Source of the DNA: Macrostomum lignano | Taxonomy: Eukaryota | Length of the DNA: 64,000 bases | Reading direction: 5' to 3' | Assembly (NCBI GenBank): GCA_002269645.1 | Contig: NIVC01000522.1 | Span: forward strand, 62,001 to 126,000 | Part shown: one piece after another, positions 4,813 through 29,598 of the stretch | How positions within the stretch are numbered: the first letter of the stretch is position 1 | Layout: each line of letters starts with the position of its first letter | Notes under the pieces: model-generated | Databases searched by the model: none | What the model saw: the letters and a program-made list of their open reading frames with translations, nothing else | Told to the model about the DNA's origin: nothing | Made by a program: the position numbers and the translations under genes

Positions 4813-5256
4813 CTGCATCAGTCGAACCCTAGCCCCAGGCTGATTGTCGCACTCGGCATCCAGGTGAGCGTACAACAGCAGACACCGAGCCACCATGCTT
4901 GGCAGGCACAGCGACTGAGCCGCCAGCATGCACTCGCGCAGGTATGCGCAGCTCTCCCGCACCGCGCCAGCGTAGGTGAACAGCCAGGCCAGCTGGTGGC
5001 GGCACAGCAGCAGCAGGTGCACGCTGAGCCAGGCGTCCCTAGCGAATGGATCGGCCGACTTCACCGGCAACTGGCATGGCGTCTTCTCGCGGAAATGGTG
5101 CAGCACCAGGGAGACGGTCAGCTTGCGCAAGTACAGCAGCTGCTCCATCGGGTCGGCTCCGCCTGGGTCGCCGACAGCAGTGTCAGCGGGATCTTCGCCC
5201 CACACGGCGACCTCGTCGCCATCTAGTTCGGGGCCGGCGAGAAGGCGGCAGCGAAC
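4813..5256 (-). CDS. ESPL1: Separase exon 3 (helical/TPR-like region)
   Basis: GC-rich open frame (VRCRLLAGPELDG...ARVRLMQ) with ctag acceptor and CAG|GTGAGG donor, phase 0/0. Confidence 0.8.
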
Positions 5257-5299
5257 CTAGTAGAGGTGGAAGCAACCCACTTTTGAATATCTCTGACTA

Positions 5300-5770
5300 G
5301 CCACCCACCCCACGTCCCCACTCCGCCAAGACACCCACCCCACTCCCACTCCGCCAAGACACCCACCCCACTCCGCATAGACACCCTCCCCAATCCGCCT
5401 AGACACCCACCTCACTCCGCATAGACACCCACCCCACTCCCATAAGACACCCACCCCACTCCGCCAAGACACCCACCCCACTCCGCCAAGACACCTACCC
5501 CACTCCGCCTAGACACCCACCCCACTCCGCCTAGATACCCCCTCACTCCGCCTAGACACCCACCCCACTCCGCCTAGATACCCCTCACTCCGCCTAGACA
5601 CCCACCTCACTCCTCATAAACACCCACCCCACTCCGCCTAGACACCCACCCCACTCCACCTAGACACCCTCCCCACTCCGCCTAGACACCCACCCCACTC
5701 CGCCTAGACACCCACCCCACTCCGCCTAGACACCCACCCCACTCCGCCTAGACACCCACCCCACTCCACC
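5300..5770. repeat. 22-bp C-rich minisatellite (CCACTCCGCCTAGACACCCACC)
   Basis: Fills separase intron 2 up to the donor site. Confidence 0.9.
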
Positions 5771-6365: not shown

Positions 6366-9563
<3,198 letters not shown>

Positions 9564-14257: not shown

Positions 14258-17200
14258 CAATGCTAAGTGCTAAGTGCAATGGTACACTGTACAGCCATGC
14301 ACGTGTTGAAATAATTTTGCAATGGGGTTGATATAATTTAGTGCATATGCATATCTATTGTAAAGTATTTTTATGTATCAATTGAATCTCAGCACTTTTT
14401 ATGATATATCCGGCATTCTTGAATATTATTGTGTTATTATTTAGTCAGTATTTATTCAGTAGTGAGTTTCCTATTTCCACGATATTTACTGTACATACTT
14501 TATTACTATTGTTTTACTGTATGTTAATTCTTATCGTATTTGAAATGCAAATGTACTATGTTTGGTGTTGGGTTTTTTCTAGGCGCTGTAGAAGTTGTAG
14601 AGAGTAGCGTAGTTTCCAGAATTTAAGTCCATCTAGTCTAGTTTAAATAATAAATCTAATTACTTTTATCATAAATAGATTATACAAATAAATATGAATT
14701 AAATTAAGGCGCATTGTACCCACCAAACAAGGACACATTCATTCAACCATCTGTCATCACAACAAATATTCTTTTTGAATTGTTTGACTTCAAGAAGTTT
14801 ATTTTACATTGGCAACCACACCAGCAAAGAGCAGCTAGATCTGAGCATTATAGTGAAGTCAAGTATATTCATTGTTGCCTATTCTACTGTGAATTATCAA
14901 GACAATATTATTTTTTGGTCAACTACCATTACCAATAATATTAATCTGCTTTCTGCTTATCAAACAACTGATCTTCTTTTGGACATAATTGCTATTATAA
15001 ATTATTTTTTTCTTGCTTGACTAGGTTTCAATAAAATTCAGCCTTAGGATTATCAATAGTTGATATAATTAATGTCAACAAATAAGTCCTTTTTTTGGCT
15101 CAAACTTCAAAGAATTATATTATTGACTATTAAAAAAGAGCCTTCTTCAGACCTATCAGGACCTATTGGTATCATCATTATCAACTAATTCATTGATTGA
15201 TTGTCACCAATATGCCACCAAATAAGGTAGGTAGGCCTAGTGCCTACAGGCAAATTGGCAAAATCAAAATGTGCTCCAATTAGCAAACCAAAGACGAGGT
15301 CAACTAGTACTACAAAGAAAAAACCAAATAGTTATCAAAGCCAGCAGGTTCCATCATCATCAGATGCCAGTGGACCCTTATTATCTAAAAGTGCTGAGAT
15401 TCAATTGATACATAAAAATACTTTACACTATCTAAAATACTATCGGGTGTCAGGCATGGTTTTCTATGGTCTGCAGTCTTATCGCCTCGAGTGAGTGATG
15501 CTAATCTACAACTGTACTGTACAGCACAGCACAGAGCCCAAATCACGTTGCGTTGCGTTTTCAGGGATGCGCGCCAGTGCCTGCTGATCAGCCCGCTGTA
15601 CCACAAGCTCGGCAGCTGGTTGAGCTCTAACAATTCTAAACCTGTCACATGGGTTTTTCACTTTAAATATATTGCCGCTGAGGCCTAAAATTGAAATTTA
15701 TACACAACCTACAGGCAAATTAAAGTTAAATACTATTTTCTCAAGTATTTTTGCAGAAAAAAAATGCACAGTCTAAAGTTGTATTTTCAGTTTTGCTTTA
15801 CCATTTAAAAATTCTGCCGGCTTAGAAACGTTAATATATTAATGTATTAGCAACGCCTAATCTTAATCTTAATCTTAATATCCCTATATACATACACTCA
15901 ACAGGATCAGCGTCAGTGCTATACGTGTATATATAGGGACGCATGATTAAACGCGCATTTTTAACTGGTCTCAGTGACACCAGCGCGAACTGGCACGCGC
16001 AAATATTCTAGACGCATCAATCTGAATTGCTGCAGCTACATGCTGCAGTTAGCATAATATGACATAGGCGTATTCTCTCCCATAAAGTCAGTGCAGTTCT
16101 CGCTGGGTGTGGTTGGGTGGGGGTGGAACCGCAATCTTAGCCAATGAAGCTAGCTTATATTATATGTTACGAAGGCTAGGTAGTATAAAGCAGTCAATCC
16201 AATGTAATGCGAACTACATGTACATTGAAGATGCACAATGAAGTGCATTGTAAATTCACTTAATAGTTATAGCTCATACTCGTACTATGCCTACCGGTAT
16301 TAGCGTTTCCCTGTTATTGCCCCATTCATTTATGTCTATGGCTACAACCTTATAACCCAGTTGTTATTGCCTTCCCCCAGCGTGTCTCCTCTCTCTAAGC
16401 GACTCGTCCGCACGAAGCTACTTGTATTGCGGCGCAAGGTTAAAAAGTGAAAGATTACGCGACATAGCAATCAAATATAAAGCACAGGATCACAAGACAA
16501 AGACATAACACTCAACAACTGAGGGAAAGAGTGTGTGTGGCTGCTGCAGTCCGAGGCTGCTGGTTTCACTTCTGCCAGGCTGTCGTCGGCAAGTTTAAGA
16601 CATATGTGGTCTTCAGCCGTTCATCAGCCGCAGTGCTTCGGACCAGCAGAGAGTAAGACAGTGGCTGCTGAAGTTTCTGGCCGTACCGCTGGTTCCCGGG
16701 GATGAGATCGCCAGTGCTGTCCACGTTCTGGAATCGTTGCCGGTCGGCTGTCAGGAGAAGTACACCGCTCTGTCCCGCGTTAATAACTTACTACTGTCCA
16801 TCGGGCGCACAAACTGCGATATTGAGTCCTTAACCACCGGGGGCCTACATGTAGCTGTCACGACTGATAAAGACCGCACACCCAAATTTAATTGTGGGTC
16901 TACCTTGACTGCCTCATGAAAGCAATTAAAACACACTGCACGGGCAAGACTTGCTAAAGGTCGGAGGGAGTGCACAAAGTTCGGCGACTTAAACACAAGT
17001 CGTTGCTGCAGTCGAAGAGACTGTTCGACGCACAAGAAAAGTTGCGGCTGCGCCTTATCCAAGCCCTGTCGAGTTTCTGACACCTAGAAGGTTACCTAGA
17101 AGGTGGTGTGGACACTGTTCGCCCGGCCTCAGAGCAGCCACTGCCGGACCATCAGCTGCTGCAGCCAGTGCCTTAGACTAGAGTTACAGTAGGGCTGAGA

Positions 17201-17437
17201 CAAAGCCGTATAGAGAAAATAAAGCTTCCTGACTTTGTGCCGGACCATCAGCCAAGGACAACTTAAGTAGTAGAATTGGACGCTACACTCGAAATCCATG
17301 GTAAATGTTTTGAAGGCAACCTTTCGCCGAAAAATACACTACAGAGATAGGAGGTTTTAATTTTTTCAGCACAAATATTGTTATTGATTTTGATAAGGAG
17401 GCAGATCCAGTGTTCATCTTTTGATATGTTGTGCCTT

Positions 17438-18271
17438 ACTACGTATCGTGCAGATTGTTGTCGATTTTGGAGGTGAGGTGGGTGTCAGAGCCAATGGAAA
17501 TTCAACGCCTATCTAAATACATTAGACCTCTTCTAATTGGTCCAGACCCTGTAAGTCATTATGTGAGACATTTATGCATGTAACTCTCGTGTAAATCTAA
17601 TTATACATGTAATCAGTGTACACTGTGTCGTACAGAAGCGACGAGTACAATATAGTACGCATAATTAGCGCTTCACCGTAGCAGTTGTTGTACGCAGAAG
17701 CGCGCGCGCCCCCATCCCCACACAATGCAGCATTGGTGTACGCAGAATTAACTGTCCATATTAACTGTCCATATACCAAAAATTGGCAGAATTAACGTGC
17801 GCCGACCCACCTGATAACTGTCCATATTATTACTTGTCCATATTTACTGTCCATCCCAAAATTGGTGTACGCGCAGAATTGTAGCGCCCGCCCACCCCAT
17901 AGCTGTTCGATCATACCCAAAATTGATGTACGCGCAGAATTGTAGCGCCCGCCCACCCCATAGCTGTTCGATCATACCCAAAAGTGATGTACGCGCGGAA
18001 TTGTAGCGCCCACCCATCCAAGAAAATATTCTGTCGCCCCTCACAATTAATTGGCGGCGCCACGCGGAGGCATGATGAGTCAGCCGCTGTAAATCGCTGC
18101 TATCCACCCCTCTGCTGCAGCCTGTTATTTCCACTCACACCATTCTCCATCCCTCTAGAATTCTGTCCTCCGTAGCCACTCCGGGGCAATTACGCCATAC
18201 CCAACCCCTCCCTCAGAGCCAAATAAGTTTTCAAAAGGTGTATATATATTTACACAAAAAGCCGGCCGAGC
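17438..18271 (+). repeat. Left terminal inverted repeat (834 bp)
   Basis: Begins ACTACGTATCG. Reverse complement of 26709-27391 apart from about five substitutions and a roughly 150-bp expansion. Confidence 0.95.
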
Positions 18272-18287
18272 TTTGATACGTATATAC

Positions 18288-18761
18288 TTATTTAGCATAC
18301 ACAATTGGGTGACGACCCAAAACGATTGAATAATAGCGAGCAGGAGCATTTTGCAAACCCTTTGCAAACAGGTTTTGCACAAGATACCAAAGTCGGAACC
18401 CCACGTGGGAGACTTTGCGCGTGAAAAAAGTTGTAAAAGCGCCACTCTTTTCCATGGCATGCATTTGGTCATCGACGACAAGCAGAATATTTGGTTCAGG
18501 GACATATTGTTCAGGATCAAATGTACACGAACGAAAATTTACAGGGTACGGCAATTCAAACAGTTCAGGATCTGGATAGTGGCCAAACCACTCTACGCGA
18601 ATCGGCTTCGGATCTTGAAAAAACTCTTGTCTCAATAGGTTTTTCACAAGTGTGGTCTTGCCGCTTTGAGCCACCCCAGCAAAAATTGCCGACGTTTTGG
18701 GGGCAAATTTTAAAGAGTCGGGGTCTATTGTTTGATACATTTTGATAGGCTGCCCAATCAT
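18288..18761 (-). CDS. A32/FtsK-like DNA packaging ATPase, probably C-terminally truncated
   Basis: Walker A GVAQSGKT, Walker B LLVVDD and the LVQNLF motif. Only 157 aa, and the stop lies 17 bp from the inner edge of the TIR. Confidence 0.85.
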   Translation of the reverse strand: MIGQPIKMYQTIDPDSLKFAPKTSAIFAGVAQSGKTTLVKNLLRQEFFQDPKPIRVEWFGHYPDPELFELPYPVNFRSCTFDPEQYVPEPNILLVVDDQMHAMEKSGAFTTFFTRKVSHVGFRLWYLVQNLFAKGLQNAPARYYSIVLGRHPIVYAK

Positions 18762-18769
18762 GCATATAT

Positions 18770-19219
18770 TTATGGATGATGCTGCTTTATTTGTAGACAG
18801 TGATTCTGCACCATCAAGTCGTTCTCATAAAGATTTGTTCTATAACAGTCGCGCAATATTTTTTCAATTGACAGACCCTCCAGAAAGTGTTTTTCAGCCA
18901 CAAATATTACATTAGCCCCGCAGGTCACACTTAGCTGATGCTGTACAGGATGCCGGTTCATGGCCACCTCCGCGGAGACATACTTTGCGATCCACAACTT
19001 TAATAAATCTGGCACAGGATCGATACACAAGGGGTCAAAAAATGTCACGCTCTCATCGGCATGAAGACAAATTAAAGCCCAGTGAGTGCCTGGTAGATTG
19101 CCAGTGTCAAAGTTAATCACGTATGCAGCAGGATAAACAGGCTGCGGAATCCTGTCAACTGGTGTTAATCGAACAGGGACAGGTAGTAGTAGACGTTCTA
19201 ATATATCTAGACTATTCAT
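18770..19219 (-). CDS. Adenain/Ulp1-like cysteine protease (maturation protease), in frame with the major capsid protein
   Basis: Own ATG (MNSLDI), then INFDTGNLPGTHW (His), FFDP (Asp) and QHQLSVTCGA (Gln, Cys). Confidence 0.9.
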   Translation of the reverse strand: MNSLDILERLLLPVPVRLTPVDRIPQPVYPAAYVINFDTGNLPGTHWALICLHADESVTFFDPLCIDPVPDLLKLWIAKYVSAEVAMNRHPVQHQLSVTCGANVIFVAEKHFLEGLSIEKILRDCYRTNLYENDLMVQNHCLQIKQHHP

Positions 19220-19276
19220 ATTGGCATGAATATGGCCGTTATTCGGGAATAAAAAAAAAGATGTTTGTTTCTGCAC

Positions 19277-20554
19277 GTAGTCTAGAATAACCTGACGACC
19301 GCGAGTGATTTGCACAGTATTGTCAAAGTAGCCAAACACCAACACGTTGATTCCTGCGGCCAAGGCAGCAGAAAACTTTATTTGTAGCGTCAGATTCCCT
19401 CGCTCGCGAGGCATGCTATGCCCGCCCAGCTCCATGTCGGGCATGAGATTCCAGGCGAAGAAGCAGTAGCCAGCTCCATAGTCGGAATATGATACGTCAA
19501 TATCCAGGTCCCGATTCATCTTTCCTAGGCTTTTTAGTAGCATGGCATACTCGCGAGCATAGTTATAAACACCGAATCGAGGAGTAAACGGTTGTCCACA
19601 CAGACTGACTCCGTCCTTATACAGAGCGACACTGTCTGCCCCAAACGGTTCAAAATTAAACGGGTTATGTGTAGCCACACCGTTGTATGCGCCGCTGTTC
19701 ACCATGCCAACAACCACTAGTTTAGGCTTTTGTTCAGGAAATATATTATTGATTGACATGTCCCGAACACCGCCAGCCACTGAAGTATTGTACACAACAA
19801 GTCGCTCAATCGGATAGATTGCATTCTGTTTGCCTAGTTGTTCTTCAATCTCCAAAGCCAGTTGAGGGTTTGCCTTGACGCGGCGCACATGTAGTTTGGC
19901 ACTCTCGAGTACCAGCCGCGCATCAACCCCGTCCGCGTGGCTTTCCAGAACGAAGCCGGAATTGTGCATGGTCAGCGTAATTACCATATCAGTGTATGGC
20001 AGTAGCATTCGGTCGTTGGTAACAAAAAAGTCTAAACTAAGAGGTCCATAAAGGTGAAAGGTGCGTGAGTTTGCCGCCATCGCCTTGCGGGCTACAAAGC
20101 CAGGATTTCCAACCACAGCCATTTGACCTCCAGCGTCCTTTGCGTAGCCCATCATTCTCAGTTGGTTCGTTTTTGAATCGTGTCCGTAATTCAAACACGT
20201 GCGAATATAGGCCTTGTAAGCGTGGTTGTTATTGCTCGACTCTACGTGTGTCCCGTTGATTGTCAACGTGACGTTTTTAAACATGCTTTCAAGGACGTAA
20301 TTGACCGGCGCAACATTCGAATCAGCAGCAAGATTTGTGCCATTAGATTGCCTAACGCGGGCCTTAATCTCGAGGTCAATGTCGTTAAGATCGATAAACG
20401 TCTCACCACCAACAATCCTAAATTCGACCACGCTGGCATTTTCAACACTGGCAACAGGGTGAACTTCTTCAGTGGTGGCGCTAATTGCAGCAATTTGGTG
20501 TGCGCGAGGAGCAAATAGCTCGAATTCCGACTTTGTACACAGGCACTCAGTCAT
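19277..20554 (-). CDS. Polinton double jelly-roll major capsid protein (reads through into the protease)
   Basis: About 426 aa with Polinton-type MCP features: EFELF..., SVVEFRI, FIDLNDIDL, PVNYVLESMF, NPFNF, and C-terminal FDNTVQITRGRQVILDY. No stop before the protease. Confidence 0.85.
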
Positions 20555-20620
20555 TTTTCTTTCAACAGCGGCTTAGTGTGGTGCTCTAATAGACAGATCA
20601 GTTATTGGCACGGGTTTTTT

Positions 20621-20629
20621 TATTTATAG
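20621..20629 (-). promoter_or_regulatory. CTATAAATA box upstream of the major capsid gene
   Basis: One of six (C/T)TATAAATA boxes on the coding strand of the element; 67 nt before the ATG. Confidence 0.55.
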
Positions 20630-20965
20630 AGTCGAAAATATCAGAATGCTGCAGTCTTTTTCTCGTTTTTTGTTAGTCATCTTTCTTCGTCTTTGTCTGC
20701 CGCTACCTCGTTGTGCGACTGTGTCCTTGAAAGCATCTTTAGCTGCCTGGACAGAGTTACGCAATGCTGCTTCTTTCAAGTTCCCGCCTTGATCGAGTGT
20801 GTCGCTAACTGTTGTAGCTAGGGTTCGTGTTCCGTGGCGAAGAATATTTTTGCCAAAACTCTTTAAAATTGGCAGGGCAAATCGGGCAATGCTGCCAAAC
20901 AGGCCGTTGCCGCGCTGTGCACCGGAAAATACCGATAAACCTCCTCCGATCAAGATTGAAGGCAT
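20624..20965 (-). CDS. Small basic Polinton virion/core-like protein
   Basis: QRGNGLFGSIARFALPILK and QRGSG motifs, an amphipathic helix and an Arg/Lys-rich tail, typical of the small ORF found next to Polinton capsid genes. Confidence 0.65.
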   Translation of the reverse strand: MPSILIGGGLSVFSGAQRGNGLFGSIARFALPILKSFGKNILRHGTRTLATTVSDTLDQGGNLKEAALRNSVQAAKDAFKDTVAQRGSGRQRRRKMTNKKREKDCSILIFSTL

Positions 20966-21006
20966 ATTGTCAATCAGTTGCTACATTTTATTCGTGAAAA
21001 CTTCTT

Positions 21007-21015
21007 TATTTATAG
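21007..21015 (-). promoter_or_regulatory. CTATAAATA box upstream of the 113-aa core-like gene
   Basis: 42 nt before the ATG; overlaps the penton stop codon. Confidence 0.55.
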
Positions 21016-22163
21016 CTTAATTTCACGAATGTTGATCGATAAAACAGTTTTGCCTCGAAGAATCCGATCCATTAACTTGCCCATATCGTCACAGATTTGC
21101 ACCTCAATGGTTTTGAATGGGTGTTTCACCAACGGTAAGTAGGATGGATTGACAAACTCGTAGTACTCTCGTTCGCCGTATACCTTTTCATTCAAAGGAA
21201 TTGCCCCAAGCAGGGGGACTTTGACGTCTCCAACAATGGCAGAGTCGACAATATTTGAATAGATTACATAGTTTGTACACCATTTGTTAAATCGATTGGT
21301 CGTTTAGCGGTCTTTGGAGTTTCATTGAAAACATCTTCGCGAAAGCCGAGAATGGCAGCAAGCTCTCCAATGTCGAATAAAATGTTTTCAATTGGTTTGT
21401 ACTCACACCGGTTCAGAAAAGGGTTGTAGCGGAATGCATCCACTCTCGTCGCTGGACTTATTGGGAGCTTTGAAACGACGCCCCAAAGCGCTCCATTAAC
21501 ATAATTTAAGAGCTCATCGGGCGTGCGGTAGAATCCTTTAGCAATCCGCAGTGACGTTCTAGAAGGCCAGACACTCTTTTCAAACGTTAGAGTCATCGGA
21601 CTCTCTATGGAGGAGGAGGACTCCAATTCTATAGCGAATACTAACGAATTTCTTGGGTTTAATAAAAAAGTCGTTACTTCGATATTTGATTTATTTCCAG
21701 CGTCATCAACTTTTTAAAACATGCTACGCACATTACTGGACAGCCTAATGTTCGCACCATACCATGATTTGTTCACAATTGAAATTTGGCCTTCCTGTGA
21801 ACGCTCAATGCAAATCATCGCATTATCGTCTTGCTCATATTTTAGAGCGGCGATGATTGCATCAACCACTTCGTTGGCTGTTGATAGCCCCGCGGCGAGA
21901 GAAACCGACGCAAACTGTTTATACGTGGAGGCGGGTTTTTCTCTCACCTCAATGTCAATCACTTCATCCTCGGGAGCGTTGGTCAGGACATCAACCATTC
22001 GATTATCGGGGACGGTTTTGAATTCTTTACAAAAGTAGATCCGTTCGATGCAGACTTCATGATTCGGAAAGTGGAGGGTGTCGGGCAAATTAATGCTATA
22101 ATGTGCCGAATTATTCTCAGGATAGTGCTCAACGCACGCATTGCTAGGTAGGAATAGATGCAT
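21010..22163 (-). pseudogene. Minor capsid protein (penton, single jelly-roll), disrupted
   Basis: N-terminal LFLPSNA..YPEN..LP and C-terminal IVGDVKVPLL..P.Y.P..F.TIEVQI.D..G motifs. In-frame TAA at 21716-21714 and a 1-nt frameshift near 21265 (ATG TA- ATC TAT). Confidence 0.8.
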
Positions 22164-22197
22164 TGTAATATACTACACGTTTCGAGTGTATGTGTGT

Positions 22198-23250
22198 TCA
22201 TCCTTGTCTTATATTTATAACTTCCTCAACTGGTACAAATGCATTGAACGACTCGGGATAGCCGCGCCAACTAACGAAACGATGAGCAACACCATTGATG
22301 ACGACATTGCGACGCAGAATTTTGTCTATAACAAAGCGGTCCGGTCGAACCGTCTTTGAAAGTTCATTATAGTAGAATCGACCCTCGATTTGTTCTCCAG
22401 ATAGGTCGGAAATGCGATAAAAATGAGGCGGTCCTGGGCATACTTGAGACACAACGTAAACTTCTTCGCTGTACATATCGTATGCTTCCTTGTCAAAGGC
22501 TCGACGAGATTTTGAAATTCTGACAAAGTCCCCTTTTTGGTAAACTGGTTCATCATATTCAGGATCCTTGTAGAGTTTTTCCCACAATTCTTTTTGATTG
22601 TGCAGACCGACACTCGAAGGTTTCATATCAATAGTAGAGTGTACTGTGTTGTTGTAACTTTTAACCAATATTGGCAAATAGTCGATCCAACGCCACGCGT
22701 TTTTATGCTCAAAGTAGCGAGCTAAACGTTTTCGGAGAGTCCTAATCAGCCTTTCAGAGTTTGTACTGTACATTTTGATATTATGGGCTTTCAGTAAGTT
22801 CTACATGCGATTTTTATAAAACTCTGTACCTCGATCAACGTGTAGATATAAAGGCTTAATGGGGAAGTCTTTGATCATGCTTTCAAAAGCCTTTGGAGTG
22901 TCGCTTTTCAATTTTATTGGCTGGCAAAAAGCCAATTTGCTAAGCACGTCAATTGCAACTAGAATATATCGATGACCATCATTCCATTGTTCGTATCGCG
23001 ACATGTCCATCAAATCCGCTTGCACGGTTTCCATGAAGCCTCCCGACATTACTTTTCCGGTTCGGAATTTTCTTTTAACCCTCTTGTGCCGGGTGTAGCT
23101 CGATTGGGTCTTCAGCCATTCGTCGGTTTGGTGTCTCGTCAGGGAGGGGACCAGCCGTTTGGCCTCCTGATATACACGGGCAGCATTTGTAAAAGCGGCG
23201 TCCCCCTGTTCGTACACTCTCCGAAGAGCGGTTTTCACCCTCATTCGCAA
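22198..23250 (-). pseudogene. Retroviral-type (RVE) integrase with C-terminal chromodomain, disrupted
   Basis: QADL and AIDVLSK (D), VDRGTEF (D), SERLIRTL (E), YNNTVHSTI and a chromodomain (VSWRGYPESFNAFV). In-frame TAG at 22803-22801 and an apparent deletion of about 7 codons before the ER motif. Confidence 0.9.
22212..22220 (-). promoter_or_regulatory. TTATAAATA box upstream of the penton gene
   Basis: 49 nt before the ATG, inside the end of the integrase ORF. Confidence 0.5.
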
Positions 23251-23378
23251 CTAGAGTCGATGCACAGCATGAGTAATTACACTTGAACTCCACAGACGGT
23301 TTGTCTGAGCAAAGCTTTGAAGTTACAGCTGCAGCACCCATGATCCAAAAACAGATTATATATCATGAAAATGATTTC

Positions 23379-23387
23379 TATTTATAG
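23379..23387 (-). promoter_or_regulatory. CTATAAATA box upstream of the integrase
   Basis: Overlaps the stop of the upstream ORF; 129 nt before the integrase ATG. Confidence 0.45.
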
Positions 23388-24060
23388 TTTTTTTAACGTC
23401 TCGTATTTTACTGCTGGTTTCTGCCGCCTCTTTGGTTCGCGAAGTTGGTATGAAGCATGCCTGTAGGCATCGCTGCCACGATCTTCATATTTTTTGATTT
23501 CATTCAGGCCACTGGCTTGGTCTTTGTGGAAGTCGTTGTAGAAATCATTAGTTCCAATTGCTTGCTCGACTAAAAAATCGTCTCGATCCGGATCCGTGCC
23601 GACTTCTTTTTTCACACTGACTTCTTCTTGTTGGCGTCGTCCTAGTAGAGCTTTTGCAATATCTGCCTCTTCGGCCAGGGCCCAAAAAGCGGTACTATAT
23701 TTTGGGCTTGGGCGGTCGCGCCTTTCATTCGATGTAATCTCCTTCAGTAGATCGAAAATATTGCTTCCTGGCCAGGTTTTTCCATCAAATACAATTTCCC
23801 ACGACTTGTTGTACTCCAAATTTGGGGTATGGATTTTCTGTCAGCATGTCCCAAACACGTTGTTGTCGTTCAGGAAAACGATTACTCTTCTTTTGCTTGA
23901 TCTGACTTAGTTTATTTTGGAGTTGAGTGTTGTATTCAATGAGTTTTTCATATTCTGTTTTGGATGCAATTTCTCGGGGTGCGCCTTGACTTAGTCTATT
24001 AAATTCTTCTTCTGGTACAACAACGTATTTATTCATTTTAGCGACCGAGTAGTCCGCCAA
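23382..24060 (-). pseudogene. Conserved Polinton uncharacterised protein, split by a frameshift
   Basis: The MNKYVVVPEEEF N-terminus (23785-24060) and WEIVFDGKTWPGSNIFDLL (23382-23819) lie in overlapping frames that switch around CCCCAAATTT near 23820. Confidence 0.6.
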
Positions 24061-24277
24061 ACAGGCTTGATATTAGCGGTGCAGCAACAGATGCAAGGAT
24101 GGGTAGAAAGCCACCGACTTGAGGATTCGAGAGAAGCATATTCTTCTTCCTATTTATAGACAATTTTGTGTCTGCCAATTCACGCAACGATCTTCTGTAT
24201 CGCTTTAATCGCAGATACTGTTTCGGAGAAAGATCGATATTATAGACAATTTCATAGCAGCTTGTACGTACATACAA
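24038..24277 (-). CDS. Small protein with a pX-like GG^FLP amphipathic C-terminus
   Basis: Basic N-terminal half followed by QVGGFLPILASVAAPLISSLFGG, resembling the adenain-cleaved C-terminus of adenovirus pX. Confidence 0.6.
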   Translation of the reverse strand: MYVRTSCYEIVYNIDLSPKQYLRLKRYRRSLRELADTKLSINRKKNMLLSNPQVGGFLPILASVAAPLISSLFGGLLGR

Positions 24278-24324
24278 ATTCGGTACAGTGGTAAAGCAGT
24301 AAAGTTACGCAACAGCTACATGGA

Positions 24325-24804
24325 TTAGACATGCAAAACGCTAGTCACATGATCGTACATTTGACAGAGCTCTTTAAAGTTTCGTATTCCAAGGAAAACA
24401 AGGCGGCCATTCTTTCCGCATAATAAACATTTAGCATTGCGAAATGGAGACTTTATTACTATTCCATTGAAAACTTCGCACTCCCACTTCACCCAGCGGG
24501 ACCCGGAGTATGCAATTTGGAAAAAGTTTGGCCATCTGTCTACTTCAGCGCGGTAAGTACTAGTGGTAACAACAACAGAAATTGGTTTACATTGAGGAAA
24601 AAGACGCAAAACTTGGTTGACTGAGCGACAACCGAATACAATTGCAGACAAAGAGCGCTGAAAAAAGTTGATTGTACATTTTCCTATTCGCAAATTGATA
24701 AGAGCTCTTCGTCTGCGAAATGTCCGTGCGCTCGCCCAGTCCAAGTCAGGCATGCGGCTCCATTTCGCGCAAAACACTCGGTTCACACACTCGACGTTCT
24801 GCAA
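24325..24804 (-). CDS. Divergent TATA-binding protein (TBP)-like protein encoded by the element
   Basis: Manual alignment to the TBP core: N.V.........DL spacing; LRI..CTINFF...[39 protein letters not shown] aligns without gaps to [48 protein letters not shown]..VL matches SGKIVLTGAK..EI.Q.FE.I..VL. The ORF starts at TTG, not ATG. Confidence 0.8.
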   Translation of the reverse strand: [159 protein letters not shown]

Positions 24805-25535
24805 GTAGATTTTTCGGCAGTTTTTACTTTCGTATCCTTCTTGGGGGCTTTCGACCGCTTCTTTGATTCGTTGGCTGCTACTAGTTTCGATTGATGCTGT
24901 CGCTTTCTGGCCTGATTTTTAGGCACCTTTGGCAGCTTCTCCTTGACAAGCTTTGGTGGTTTCTTTGCTTTCTTGCTTACTTTCTTGGTGCCTACCTTGA
25001 TTTTTGGAGGTGGCGTCCAATAGCAACGATCAAATGCCTGTTTGGCTTCTTCGACAAACTGTAGCTGTTGAATTTTTGGCATTGCGGTCAAAACAGCGTC
25101 TCGAATCACGGCCGTGTCGAGAGTAAACAGAATCCTGTAGTAGCCGCTCTTGTTTTTGTAATCCTCTACAGGCAGTCCGTTTTGGTCGTACATTTTAAAG
25201 TCGTGAGCCAGCCCAAACGCTGCACTGTCACCTCCAAACGCTGGGTTGTAGCCCAGCAGAGCTAGACTTTCGCTGGAAAGGTGCTCCGCCACAGTGTTGA
25301 AAGTGTAGGGTATGCAGCTTTCAATGTGTTTTTGTGCAATGATGATGAATTCGCGACCTTCGTTGTCAGTACGCACGCCCTTGACGATCAAAACAGGGAC
25401 CGCATTGGCCAAGTAGAGAGGTCCCTGTTCGTCATATTCAATGTCAAACGTTTCAACCCCGTTGAAGCTCGGACCTCGCGGTTTGAGTGCCAGCAGCTCT
25501 CGCTTGACGCAGTTGAAGTCTTGCACTGTCTCCAT
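24783..25535 (-). CDS. Hypothetical protein, possible OB-fold ssDNA-binding protein with a Lys-rich tail
   Basis: Intact 250-aa ORF with an upstream TATATAAG. The beta-rich segment FKMYDQNG..GYYRILFTL..PKIQQLQF only loosely resembles viral gp2.5-like SSBs. Confidence 0.55.
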   Translation of the reverse strand: METVQDFNCVKRELLALKPRGPSFNGVETFDIEYDEQGPLYLANAVPVLIVKGVRTDNEGREFIIIAQKHIESCIPYTFNTVAEHLSSESLALLGYNPAFGGDSAAFGLAHDFKMYDQNGLPVEDYKNKSGYYRILFTLDTAVIRDAVLTAMPKIQQLQFVEEAKQAFDRCYWTPPPKIKVGTKKVSKKAKKPPKLVKEKLPKVPKNQARKRQHQSKLVAANESKKRSKAPKKDTKVKTAEKSTCRTSSV

Positions 25536-25550
25536 GTCTCTTGTCTGTTT

Positions 25551-26499
25551 AGAAAAATTTGCAGGTACGGGCGCTTGCAGATGCTCCGGGCTGGTGCTTA
25601 TATACCCGAGAGTCTCAATAAGTTTTTGTTTTAATTACACGATAACGAGCTTTTCACAGAGTTGTCGTTATCGAGGATTCCGGAAAAAATGAACCTTTTG
25701 TTCCTATTTTCGGGTGCTGGCGTTGGAGGTGTGCTGAAATCCTTGCTCCAAGTTGCTGGTAGTTCAAGCTTTGGCGGCCTGTTCCTCTTGTGCTTTGGCA
25801 GCCAAAAATTCCAAATCTTTTGTTGCTCCTCCCACGACGGATTATACAGATCTTGATGGTTCCGAAAACGTATTTTTTGGCGATGCTCCTCACTTAGTAT
25901 CGGAGCCAGTAATCTCTCCATTCGTGCTAAATCAGCTTTGAACCTCATTTTGTCCCGTAGTTGCTCATTTATCCTGGCTGCTGCGTAGTCTTGGCTGTCG
26001 TAGGGGCCTTGATCAATTTCCTCGACCTTGGCATTGAAGGTGACTAATCGCTCGGAAATCGGTTTGCTGTGGCAAATGCACAACCAGTCAGCAGATTTTT
26101 TCAAGGCCTCATATTCGTCTTTTTCCTCGTTCGAAAATAGGGGGTAGTCTCTGGAAATCCAGCTCATTTCTTGTCAAGCACTGCTGCGTTGTTCGCACTA
26201 GTGGTGGGGATGTTATTCGAGCTTGAAAAACTGCCGAGAATCCGAGAAAAATTTGCAGGTACGGGTGCTTGGTGCCCCGGGTTGGTGCTTATATACCCGA
26301 GAGTCTCAATAAGTTTTTGTTTTAATTACATGTTAACGAGCTTTTTACGGTGTTGTCGTTATCGAGGATTCCAGAAAAAATGAGCCTTTTGTACCTATTT
26401 TCGGTGCTGGCGTTGGAGGTGTGCTGAAATCCTTGCTCCAAGTTGTTGCCAGTTCATGCTTTGGCGGTCTGTCCTCTTGTGCTTTGGCAACCAAAAATT
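25551..26499 (-). repeat. Internal direct duplication of about 255 bp (25551-25810 and 26245-26499) carrying a TATATAAG box
   Basis: Both copies share GAAAAATTTGCAGGTACGGG...GGTGCTTATATACCCGAGAGTCTCAATAAG...CCAAAAATT. Confidence 0.9.
25631..26167 (-). CDS. Hypothetical 178-aa protein of the element
   Basis: ATG-initiated ORF, co-oriented with the other genes, upstream TATATAAG. A degenerate copy of its 3' end lies at 26245-26499. Confidence 0.55.
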   Translation of the reverse strand: MSWISRDYPLFSNEEKDEYEALKKSADWLCICHSKPISERLVTFNAKVEEIDQGPYDSQDYAAARINEQLRDKMRFKADLARMERLLAPILSEEHRQKIRFRNHQDLYNPSWEEQQKIWNFWLPKHKRNRPPKLELPATWSKDFSTPPTPAPENRNKRFIFSGILDNDNSVKSSLSCN

Positions 26500-26708
26500 G
26501 CTTGTCAAACACTGCGTTTTCCACATGATTGGGGTGTTAATTGAACTAGGTGAATTTAGATAAACGGCCGAGAATCCAAATTTTCTTATTTATAGTTTGC
26601 TGTCTGAACAAAATTGGTTTGGCATCTTGTTAAACGAGAATATTTCATGCATAGAAGTTTGTGTTTTCAGACCTTGATGACGTGTCTGACTATAAAGTTA
26701 GCATTGTG

Positions 26709-27391
26709 GCTCGGCCGGCTTTTTGTGTAAATATATATACACCTTTTGAAAACTTATTTGGCTCTGGGGGAGGGGTTGGGTATGACGTAATTGCCCCGGA
26801 GTGGCTACGGAGGACAGAATTCTAGAGGGATGGAGAATGGTGTGAGTGGAAATAACAGGCTGCAGCAGAGGGGTGGATAGCAGCGATTTACAGCGGCTGA
26901 CTCATCATGCCTCCGCGTGGGGCCGCCAATTTTGTGGGGGTCACAGACAATTCTGTGCGTACACCAATTTTGGGATGGACAGTAAATATGGACAAGTAAT
27001 AATATGGACAGTTATCGGGTGGGTCGGCGCACGTTAATTCTGCCAATTTTTGGTATATGGACAGTTAATATGGACAGTTAATTCTGCGTACACCAATGCT
27101 GCATTGTGTGGGGATGGGGGCGCGCGCGCTTCTGCGTACAACAACTGCTACGGTGAAGCGCTAATTATGCGTACTATATTGTACTCGTCGCTTCTGTACG
27201 ACACAGTGTACACTGATTACATGTATAATTAGATTTACACGAGAGTTACATGCATAAATGTCTCACATAATGACTTACAGGGTCTGGACCAATTAGAAGA
27301 GGTCTAATGTATTTAGATAGGCGTTGAATTTCCATTGGCTCTGACACCCACCTCACCTCCAAAATCGACAACAATCTGCACGATACGTAGT
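26709..27391 (-). repeat. Right terminal inverted repeat (683 bp)
   Basis: Ends CGATACGTAGT and is followed by the TSD TGCCTT. Confidence 0.95.
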
Positions 27392-29598
27392 TGCCTTTCT
27401 TATTGCTCTATCGATATTCATAAAGCTTTTCGTTCAGAAATAGTTTTTAAGGCAGGTTTCACCGGAAAAATACACTACGGAAATAGGAAATTTCACGATT
27501 TTCAACACTAAAACAGTGATTGGGTCTCTTAACAGTGTCAGAGAAAGTTCTAATCACACTATTTTGTGCCTCACATGCTGCTCTAACGACGCATTCATCG
27601 ATTTTTCAAGTTAAATTGGTCTGTCACTTGAAAAAAAATGTTTAAAATAATGACAAGGACAACTTGTTACTTGAGTATAGTCCTTGCCATCAGCTTTCGT
27701 GACTTTGTGCCGGATAGCTGTAAAAATTGCTTATGTCTCTCAGCCGTAAAAATTGCCTCCGCGGTAAAGCCACTGTGGTTTTTGCGCGCTTTTGCCTGTG
27801 CGCGCTTATTTCCACACTTGCCAAAAAATACACATGCGCGCTTGTGCCTGTGCGCGCTTATTCAGCCCTCACTGTACGCGCTCGTACATCTATACAGGCA
27901 GGAGAGACTGGCAGAAGCCGTCGCTTTTACAGTTTACGTAAAATATCAATTTTGTAAATTAATGATACTTTTTAGAAGCTTTTGAACAATAGTTTATTTA
28001 TAAGGGGCCAGCGGAAGCGCCTAGCTGCAAGCAAGTCGGCAATGAAGCACTCAGTCAGAATGCCAAGCCTAGGCAACGGCACTGCAGTTCAGTCGATGCA
28101 CATGCATTCAGCACAGCCAAGAGGTTCGGATCGGAGGCAGTGGCCCAGCTGTATCTGCATGGTCGACGGCGCCGGCGTAGAGTAGCGCTCATCAGGGGCG
28201 GCGCTCCAACGCGGGCCATGAGAGGGCGTTGGTCGGCGTTCAGGCGAGGCTTATATTCAATTTCCTTTGGATGTAATCGATGTATATGTTTCATATTCAA
28301 TTATGTACTGATGATAATATGATCTGGAACTGCATGTAGACATGTATATGTGTACATGTAGTTATATATGCTGCTGCAACATGGGAGGAAACGACTTTAA
28401 AGGGACATCTACATACGTGTAAGAGAAATTGTTATCAACTGTAATACATGTACGCTATTAGGAACCTTAAATTACTCGCTGAAGATGGCATGTACATGTA
28501 TGCACAAGATGTGCTCGTTCTCAGCATTGACTGGGTACTGTACATGTACGTCTTTCAGAAACCTCGAAATGAGTCTCTAAATCAACCACAGGCATTTCTC
28601 AGGTACACTTTAACAGGAATTTCGTGGGCGTGCTAGCTGCTGTCTGTGTTTTGTCCGAGCTGAATTCGATTCATTTTTCAAGCTGAGGTTTTCATGAAAT
28701 GCTTTCCGCGGAGACGGGGGCAAGTAAAAGGAAGGCTAGTATGAAGCGAGCATTTCAGCTAGTTTTAGCCAAGGTCACGAGTGTGCGTCGTCATATCATA
28801 TTAGCCGCATTGATTGAAATGTCTATGGCTGAAACAGGCGGTCATTGCCGTGAAGTGACATTTCGATCACTAATAATAAAGTTCCGCCGAATCTTCAGCC
28901 GTTCCTGTCCCCTGTAATGTACTTTTCTATACTTGGCAGCATTTTCTCCACCAGAAGTAGTCTATGGCCAAAAGCCTAAACAGTGAATCTTTGCAAAATC
29001 CGTTTTAGAGAACGCTGCCACCATTCAATAATAGCCAATAATTTTTAAAATTTTACGTGGCTCCAATTCAGAAAGTAATTATAGAAAGGTGTGATGGATT
29101 TCGTCAACTTGGTCCAAACAACATTGTGCAGGGACCGTTAATATATAACTGTGCAAAGAGCAATGTCGAATATATTTAATATTTAATGTACCCCAGGACG
29201 AAAATAGATCTTCTGCTAAATATTTATCATCGAAATAATTATCAGCTTGACAGAGAATTAAAAGCATTGATATTAAAATAAAATCAATATCTAATTTTTC
29301 CAAGACGATAATTAAGCGTAATTAGTTTAATCAGATAATTTAAATTGCATTGTCAACTTCACGACTTGCGCCTGGAACTATAAATTTTAACGCATTTTTA
29401 GACCTCTTATAGGGCAGCAAAGGCTGTTTTAATAAGTCTTTGTCGCGTAAGTACTTGTGTAGGTTGTCAAAACACACTTGTATAGCTAAGCTGTACAAGC
29501 TACATGTAAAACAACTGGGCATCAGAGTATAGCTCTTGTTACACGAATAAGAACTAACGGGAGAGAGGGTAAAGAGGGCCTGCGATGCCCCCTAGATA

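Follow-up and report, generated by a model that had tools for sequence, protein, structure and literature searches.

How can a Polinton-like element without a DNA polymerase be copied and spread through a genome? Polintons are defined by a polymerase and an integrase in one unit, and the question is raised by a 9,954-bp element at positions 17438-27391 of the window, the 64,000-nt, N-free stretch of Macrostomum lignano DNA analysed here (GCA_002269645.1, contig NIVC01000522.1, forward-strand positions 62,001-126,000). The element holds no protein-primed DNA polymerase B (pPolB), which instead sits on separate mobile elements with matching ends. The window element, of a type hereafter called V, is bordered on each side by a perfect target-site duplication (TSD) of 6 bp, TGCCTT, recognised by sequence at 17432-17437 and 27392-27397. 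Its termini read ACTACGT...ACGTAGT, and the arms of its terminal inverted repeats (TIRs), about 680 nt, align over 445 nt at 99.6% and over 242 nt at 96.7% identity; in the left arm (17438-18271) these outer and inner parts are separated by about 150 extra nt of 60-nt direct repeats, which the right arm (26709-27391) lacks. Homology to canonical Polinton genes identifies the virion module (major capsid protein, MCP; penton; ATPase; protease), and an RVE integrase is present, as in Polintons/Mavericks. An earlier note on this DNA, which described a complete integrated unit, is borne out with respect to the ends, the TSDs, the virion genes and the integrase. The word complete is too strong for the genes of this copy: the ATPase, penton, integrase and PZ-like genes are in pieces, and about 205 bp are absent at ~24240 relative to most sister copies, which have these genes whole.

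The absence of a polymerase, also claimed in the earlier note, held in each search. No pPolB was detected with Pfam among 20 frames of the window element. A profile of 23 pPolB frames, run in six frames with stops as X, gave nothing at E<=10 within the element, and its positive controls scored 2e-226 at a partner locus (P-B, described below) and 1e-9 and 3e-4 at canonical loci. With 123 pPolB proteins, tblastn against the element returned one match below E 0.03, through the non-polymerase N-terminal extension of one protein. Similarly, pPolB was not found inside any of 46 fetched V stretches (14 subfamily-A and 10 subfamily-B contigs); a weak, distant pPolB match in the flank of the truncated A copy on C2787 has no DNA-level match to any reference. 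Pfam and PHROGs scans of 13 subfamily-B open reading frames (ORFs) and the 20 window frames gave no substitute replicase (superfamily 1 or 3 helicase, archaeo-eukaryotic primase or PolA) and no helicase or primase of any kind on V, and there is no space for a large ORF. Two unnamed ORFs considered as substitute replicases were rejected, as one folds as a single-stranded DNA-binding protein (SSB) and the other is PP1-regulator-like.

Searches with V genes, in which 97 of 532 MCP, 113 of 1570 integrase and 150 of 293 ATPase candidates were scored, revealed about 73 V loci of ~10 kb each (8.3-12 kb) in two subfamilies, V-A (with the window element) and V-B, about 25% apart. Among the 97 scored MCP candidates, 16 full-length proteins match at 97-100% (A) and 15 at 86-87% (B), and the next stand at 31-33%. 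The two subfamilies have the same gene order and are 87% identical in MCP amino acids and 72-81% in DNA. V-A copies are collinear with the window element (8.3-12.0 kb), apart from one rearranged copy of 14.4 kb (G000:C1313:243594-257956) that has a 3.66-kb inverted repeat and carries ATPase, protease and MCP twice; five of the seven measured V-B copies are 10.5 kb long. Perfect 6-bp TSDs flank 10/13 V-A and 6/7 V-B copies, a comparison that leaves out the truncated C2787 and the B copies C355, C633 and C4, whose outer ends are unresolved. The copy on C2246 is the same insertion as that of the window. On 12 other subfamily-A contigs, collinear polymerase-less copies of like make-up stand at their own insertion sites; therefore, the window element is not a product of collapse or misassembly, a possibility raised in the earlier note.

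Between the window element and a B copy, the ratio of nonsynonymous to synonymous substitution rates (dN/dS) is 0.04 for MCP, 0.06 for the ATPase, 0.14 and 0.07 for the integrase pieces, 0.40 and 0.06 for the penton pieces, 0.08 for the SSB and 0.17 for the PP1-like gene, with the protease and core genes saturated and dS at 1.1-3.0. Since neither subfamily has pPolB at this divergence, the polymerase-less state of V is old, and its virion genes have been kept under purifying selection. Among the scored candidates there is no longer copy with close virion genes (next family 31-33% for MCP, 35-36% for integrase, at most 46% for ATPase), and thus no near-identical autonomous parent with the same TIR as expected for an ordinary deletion derivative. 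As canonical ends also differ, the suggestion in the earlier note that the element derives by deletion from such a parent is not supported.

The earlier note also envisaged longer copies with pPolB and the same TIR; none with V genes was found, and pPolB sits on separate, TIR-sharing elements, hereafter P. A 27-nt inner-TIR word of the window element occurs at 37 places (control 0), eight of which are not V copies, and three of these eight lie ~6 kb from pPolB matches. The P-A element on C1396 measures 10,827 bp and has 380-nt TIRs, the TSD AACCGC and pPolB; that on C1485 (9,622 bp, TSD CATATA) is of the same build, as is the P-B element on C41, whose pPolB is 63% identical in amino acids to that of P-A. 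These two P-A elements were read end to end, and the P-B element except for ~0.6 kb of TIR. Perfect 6-bp TSDs are present in 3/3 P-A copies. A P-A TIR word occurs at 97+99 places (control 1+5), and its 31 pairs among the first 100 listed have a median span of 9.5 kb, 18/31 falling within 9.0-10.9 kb. With the last pPolB exon as the query, 115 matches (128/128 candidates scored) gave 104 P loci, 48 B-like and 56 A-like.

The gene content of P is complementary to that of V. Thirteen V proteins gave no match to the two P-A elements and the P-B element, and this blank is meaningful because the same queries detect canonical Polinton genes at 25-42% identity. In 14 P frames, only DNA_pol_B_2 (PF03175) passed in Pfam, with no helicase or integrase match. 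The P polymerase carries exonuclease, DxxSLYP-type, KxxxNS and DTDS motifs; between P-A and P-B its dN/dS is 0.14-0.18 at a dS of 1.5-2.5. Its UniRef matches at 90-97% are M. lignano entries, it is 30-36% identical to Polinton-type polymerases of fish, amphibians, tardigrades and corals, and it differs from the pPolBs at 25 other loci in the genome (E at least 0.008). In a FastTree phylogeny with 20 of 119 outside polymerases, drawn up without the canonical in-genome polymerases, which are too distant to align, P-A and P-B are sisters in one long-branched clade (SH 100; long branches flagged). The gene is apparently spliced: contigs from three runs, each of a different study and guessed to be RNA, skip GT-AG-bounded stretches of 78-87 nt, with one joint in 3/3 runs, two in two runs and one in one run. 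A contig of a run guessed to be DNA reads through one joint and gives little cover elsewhere; one frame break, at the same place in P-A and P-B, has no joint among those listed.

The ends connect the two types. Both V and P start with 5'-ACTAC, and canonical Polintons of this genome (C114 and C4619, 16.8-17.5 kb) start with AGTAGT. Across the first 33 nt, V-A and P-A have a mean identity of 0.71 (112 pairs), compared with 0.77 within V-A, and V-B and P-B one of 0.67 (7 pairs, a single P-B end); cross pairs reach 0.46-0.55, and comparisons with canonical Polintons 0.25-0.33. There are thus two cognate pairs, V-A/P-A and V-B/P-B, with ends matching pairwise. The terminal 31 nt of the window element (17438-17468), starting ACTACGTA, recur exactly in the pPolB-only P-A copies C1486, C220 and C221, all of which bear a P-A exon, and may serve as origin and integrase site. 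Likewise, the right-end 32-mer of the V-B copy on C150 is exact in the P-B loci C307, C3425, C2368 and C3431. Terminal nt 9-27 vary among near-identical copies, so the exact sharing between V and P probably reflects recent exchange rather than old ancestry. These 19 positions form a mosaic drawn from a small set of alternative blocks. The two ends of a copy usually agree, near-identical copies differ, and V and P have blocks in common, a pattern suggestive of end exchange and panhandle repair. A ~170-nt internal block (73-92% identity; left copy 18122-18295, and 26709-26858 in the right TIR) with a TATA-like word 5' of each gene array, a putative promoter, is likewise common to V-A and P-A; past the terminal ~31 nt, their TIR interiors otherwise differ.

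Fused elements were not found. The nearest V locus lies 47.8 kb from a P locus (73 V versus 104 P loci). Four long P-TIR pairs, C583, C200, C485 and C126 (read as 3-kb samples), and C1486 (read over 7 of its 18 kb) were rejected as fusion candidates, having P sequence, LINE-like or other inserts and no V gene; the long P copies sampled owe their length to duplicated P sequence, expanded repeats or insertions. C4072 was rejected because it is a P-B element inside a canonical MCP gene. The reading of candidates covered loci other than the interiors of C221, C2455, C694, C1945, C2286 and C538, all of which hold a P-A exon except C2455 and C538.

Complementary genes, ends shared pairwise, 6-bp TSDs on both types, many young copies and purifying selection together support a divided Polinton genome, and it is probable, with good but incomplete confidence, that V and P form an obligately complementary bipartite Polinton whose halves depend on each other. 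P has neither integrase nor capsid and V has no polymerase, so the dependence appears mutual. The alternative offered in the earlier note, a polymerase-less satellite lineage, was right that V borrows its polymerase and is a lineage rather than an accident; the term satellite understates V, as its partner is also non-autonomous. V (virion genes and integrase) and P (~9.5 kb, spliced pPolB) would then be two separately mobile linear DNAs of one genome. In a cell with both, the P terminal protein/pPolB would start at the shared ends and copy both DNAs by strand displacement, assisted by the V SSB. Both would be inserted by the V RVE integrase, which would account for the TSDs on integrase-less P, and the V capsid, ATPase and protease would enclose V, and probably P as well, in separate particles. 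Terminal alleles would pass between V and P as the two are replicated together. Since the ends of a genome are the sites of action of protein-primed polymerases and of RVE integrases alike, the shared termini are where both would act here; such action is also argued in a preprint (10.64898/2026.10.13.758929). The split would be older than the A/B divergence and inherited as two cognate pairs. In line with this, the P-A and P-B polymerases are sisters and so are the V-A and V-B capsids, with similar, near-saturated dS (1.5-2.5 versus 1.1-3.0) and dN/dS mostly 0.04-0.18. The stronger proposal, a bona fide bipartite double-stranded DNA virus of Polinton class whose segments are each packaged in Polinton capsids and separately integrated, with V/P pairs co-evolving across a flatworm lineage, is put forward tentatively, at a little under even chances.

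Several points weigh against a bipartite genome. Complementation, virions and free linear DNA are not directly in evidence, and it is a guess that the runs with pPolB joints are RNA. The genome is also rich in canonical Polintons whose integrases and polymerases are intact, and these could supply help in trans. For the internal block of pair A, no equivalent was found in pair B, where a promoter-word search gave only V-B copies (23/23 matches). The V-B/P-B pairing rests on one P-B element read plus terminal matches at four pPolB-bearing loci, and near-saturated dS makes V/P co-divergence coarse. With the V candidates scored as given above, a rare fused copy may exist, and the assembly may lack a fused parent.

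Such a parent is central to one rival explanation, which we consider improbable: V and P would be two classes of deletion derivatives of a monopartite, same-ended element of ~19 kb, exogenous, unassembled or recently extinct, that mobilises both. V and P do sum to one canonical gene set of ordinary size, deletion derivatives of canonical families (C754 and C4113) do spread in this genome, and mobile polB-less polintons with intact relatives are known from butterflies (10.1101/2025.02.07.637071). However, the same split in two subfamilies with dS > 1 needs two parallel identical deletions, the TIR interiors of V-A and P-A differ, none of the 73 V loci is close to one of the 104 P loci, and the long P copies sampled show duplications and insertions of their own.

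One-way parasitism is given a similarly low chance. Here V would be a satellite that borrows P or canonical pPolB, and P an independent, linear-plasmid-like transposon that uses another integrase and is never packaged. P could indeed replicate alone, there is no sign of P entering V capsids, and canonical integrases are plentiful; on the other hand, P has 6-bp TSDs without an integrase and ends like those of V and unlike canonical ones, the SSB is located on V, and terminal alleles are common to V and P in both directions. Less likely still is replication of a non-autonomous V by canonical AGTAGT-ended Polintons or host enzymes, with the V/P end likeness due to common ancestry only. Hundreds of pPolB loci in the genome (119 matches, 974 candidates) would make such help available, but V ends are only 0.21-0.33 identical to canonical ends, V itself encodes neither helicase nor primase, and identical 31-32-nt V/P termini in a stretch that varies among near-identical copies cannot be old ancestry.

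Compared with known systems, the bipartite arrangement is most directly set against Polintons/Mavericks (Polintoviricetes, 'adintoviruses'), which have the RVE integrase, MCP, penton, ATPase, protease, long TIRs and 6-bp TSDs found in V. They are single units of 13-25 kb (PMC10748475), whereas the V and P gene set is split over two ~10-kb elements; their ends are (AGT)2 or (AG)3, AGTAGT being the common Polinton end motif in vertebrates, versus ACTAC here; and intact vertebrate Mavericks are intronless (PMC8097293), unlike the apparently intron-bearing P polymerase. V further differs in having a gp2.5-type SSB. By pPolB, size and end motif, V falls outside Polintons, but it would work like one when joined with P. 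In Bidnaviridae (Bombyx mori bidensovirus), the genome is bipartite with a polinton-derived pPolB on one segment, matching termini and segments packed apart (PMC4061559, PMC8502044), and V/P likewise comprise two segments with matching termini. Bidnaviruses have single-stranded DNA, a parvovirus-type capsid on the pPolB segment, an S3 helicase and no integrase, whereas in V/P a Polinton-type capsid is on the polymerase-less segment, an integrase is present and both segments integrate. Bidnaviruses are the closest organisational analogue.

P itself resembles transpovirons and the autonomous replication modules of Polisuviricotina in being capsid-less, linear and equipped with a polinton-derived polymerase. 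Transpovirons encode a pPolB-S1H fusion and use giant-virus capsids (PMC11161782); in contrast, the 14 P frames gave PF03175 only, without a helicase or integrase match; the P polymerase has exonuclease motifs, and P has a Polinton virion element as its cognate. Replication and morphogenetic modules have been proposed to be loosely associated (2026 preprint, 10.64898/2026.10.13.758929). Polinton-like viruses (PLVs) and Tlr1 without pPolB have a virion module as in V, and Tlr1 has an RVE integrase; they encode a substitute replicase (PMC11161782), whereas none was found on V. In the available text on PLV cluster VC40, replication genes are not detectable and no partner is described (10.64898/2026.06.19.733378). 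Mobile polB-less polintons of Pieris with transposable-element cargo are like V in their mobility, but have highly similar complete relatives (10.1101/2025.02.07.637071), whereas none was found for V, which is old. The literature searched, which included few subscription papers and no Repbase, where an entry may exist, yielded neither a bipartite Polinton nor an account of these flatworm elements.

A Polinton survey required all five query proteins within 20 kb (PMC10748475). As surveys filter on the gene content of one unit, divided Polintons would be discarded as debris. If the bipartite reading is true, a Polinton can be divided into two mobile halves that need each other, which offers a way for replication and capsid modules to become loosely tied, as they are across these viruses; 'broken' Polintons of other genomes, with pPolB only or capsid only, are then predicted to have partners, which their ends should reveal. 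The stronger proposal of packaged segments would extend genome segmentation to a realm for which the literature searched gave no example, and would provide a living intermediate that shows how bidnavirus-like segmentation, transpovirons and replicase swapping can arise. The young copies and transcribed-looking polymerase in a laboratory flatworm make particle formation and end reading of Polintons testable.

All genes of the window element lie on the minus strand, in the order, from the right end, PP1-regulator-like, SSB, PW-like, PZ-like, integrase, penton, small virion ORF, MCP, protease and ATPase. The packaging ATPase (18288-18761) has Walker A and B motifs; its frame leaves the family after about residue 130 here, and sisters have 209 aa. 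The Ulp1/adenain-like maturation protease (18770-19219) is supported by a weak Peptidase_C48 match (E 0.06) and by matches to canonical Polinton proteases. The MCP (19274-20554, 427 aa) was identified by homology to canonical Polinton genes; its frame continues into the protease frame here and not in 14/16 full-length subfamily-A copies, and fusion as a family trait was rejected, as it is found only in the window insertion and its duplicate contig C2246. A conserved 113-aa ORF (20624-20965) with Gly-Gly sites and an amphipathic stretch is presumably a core/virion protein. The gene at 21010-22163, in three pieces, is a putative minor capsid protein (penton), judging from position and weak homology. 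The RVE integrase (22198-23244), with a weak chromodomain match, lies in two frames here and is unbroken (357-359 aa) in many sisters; a subfamily-B copy gives an rve Pfam match at E 1.7e-9. The conserved Polinton ORF at 23385-24036, in two frames (208 aa in subfamily B), and the ORF at 24038-24304, whose 5' part is gone with the missing ~205 bp (129 aa in subfamily B), are those we take to be PZ-like and PW-like. A partial direct duplication (26245-26499) repeats 25551-25810 at 91.5% identity.

The 250-aa ORF at 24783-25535, with a basic C-terminal tail, is predicted from its modelled fold to be an SSB of the T7 gp2.5/African swine fever virus (ASFV) CP312R/nucleocytoplasmic large DNA virus OB-fold type, and hence V would carry part of the replication kit. 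The first model of this ORF had a pLDDT of 37; the model used is of the subfamily-B orthologue (66% identical, 8 sequences, pLDDT 72), which, among 48,161 chains searched, matches ASFV CP312R (8hw5; Z 11.8, rmsd 3.6, 157 aligned), T7 gp2.5 (Z 8.6) and Enc34 SSB (Z 7.3). Against viral models it had 127 matches at E<=0.001, with giant-virus proteins on top; ESM Atlas and PDB sequence searches gave no match. The 178-aa ORF at 25631-26167 has an RVxF motif (RLVTF) and no Pfam match, and in its ESM Atlas neighbour cluster PF10488 accounts for 29% (score 0.91); it is a probable PP1-binding regulator (ICP34.5/GADD34-like) and, as a lead only, a candidate counter to eIF2-alpha shut-off. Residues 25-88 of a pPolB from a public assembly (P0114) form a PP1-binding-like domain resembling this ORF.

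Next to the TIR, V-B has a gene with a Fic domain (Pfam E 7e-14) and a Cys-rich ORF of 117 aa (L115:4323-5102, 5137-5490) that were not seen in the window copy. Outside this genome, no V relatives were found in viral_contigs, a metagenome scan gave a single distant V-like locus (MCP 29%), and no RNA run was listed as a holder of V genes. ENA/Logan assemblies contain MCPs 80-81% and SSBs 37-56% identical (P0001-P0008, P0018, P0019), pointing to V relatives elsewhere; in the capsid tree, V-A and V-B group in a single clade together with three outside proteins that are 80-81% identical (FastTree, SH 100; long branches flagged). P-B has extra ORFs of 177 aa and, acidic, 336 aa (L156:6299-6829, 6948-7955) without a tblastn match in P-A; the 177-aa ORF is presumably PC4-like by motif, and its best PDB search result reached only E 1. 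The canonical MCP gene interrupted by P-B belongs to a C84-type Polinton (G000:C4072:14540; also C2932). P-A ends recur at a ~9.9-kb period in a tandem multimer (G000:C362:496180-525281), and one P-A is nested within another element of the same end type (C1485:44228-62496). C754 (G000:C754:359773-368168, 8.4 kb) and C4113 (6.2 kb) are internally deleted C114-type Polintons with AGTAGT-type ends that kept the integrase, and the many near-identical integrase copies at 35-36% may belong to such derivatives. The remaining window (1-64000) has many tandem repeats with periods of 8-41 nt, e.g., a 31-nt array from 54932, and a small inverted pair of 44 nt at 14356/15430.

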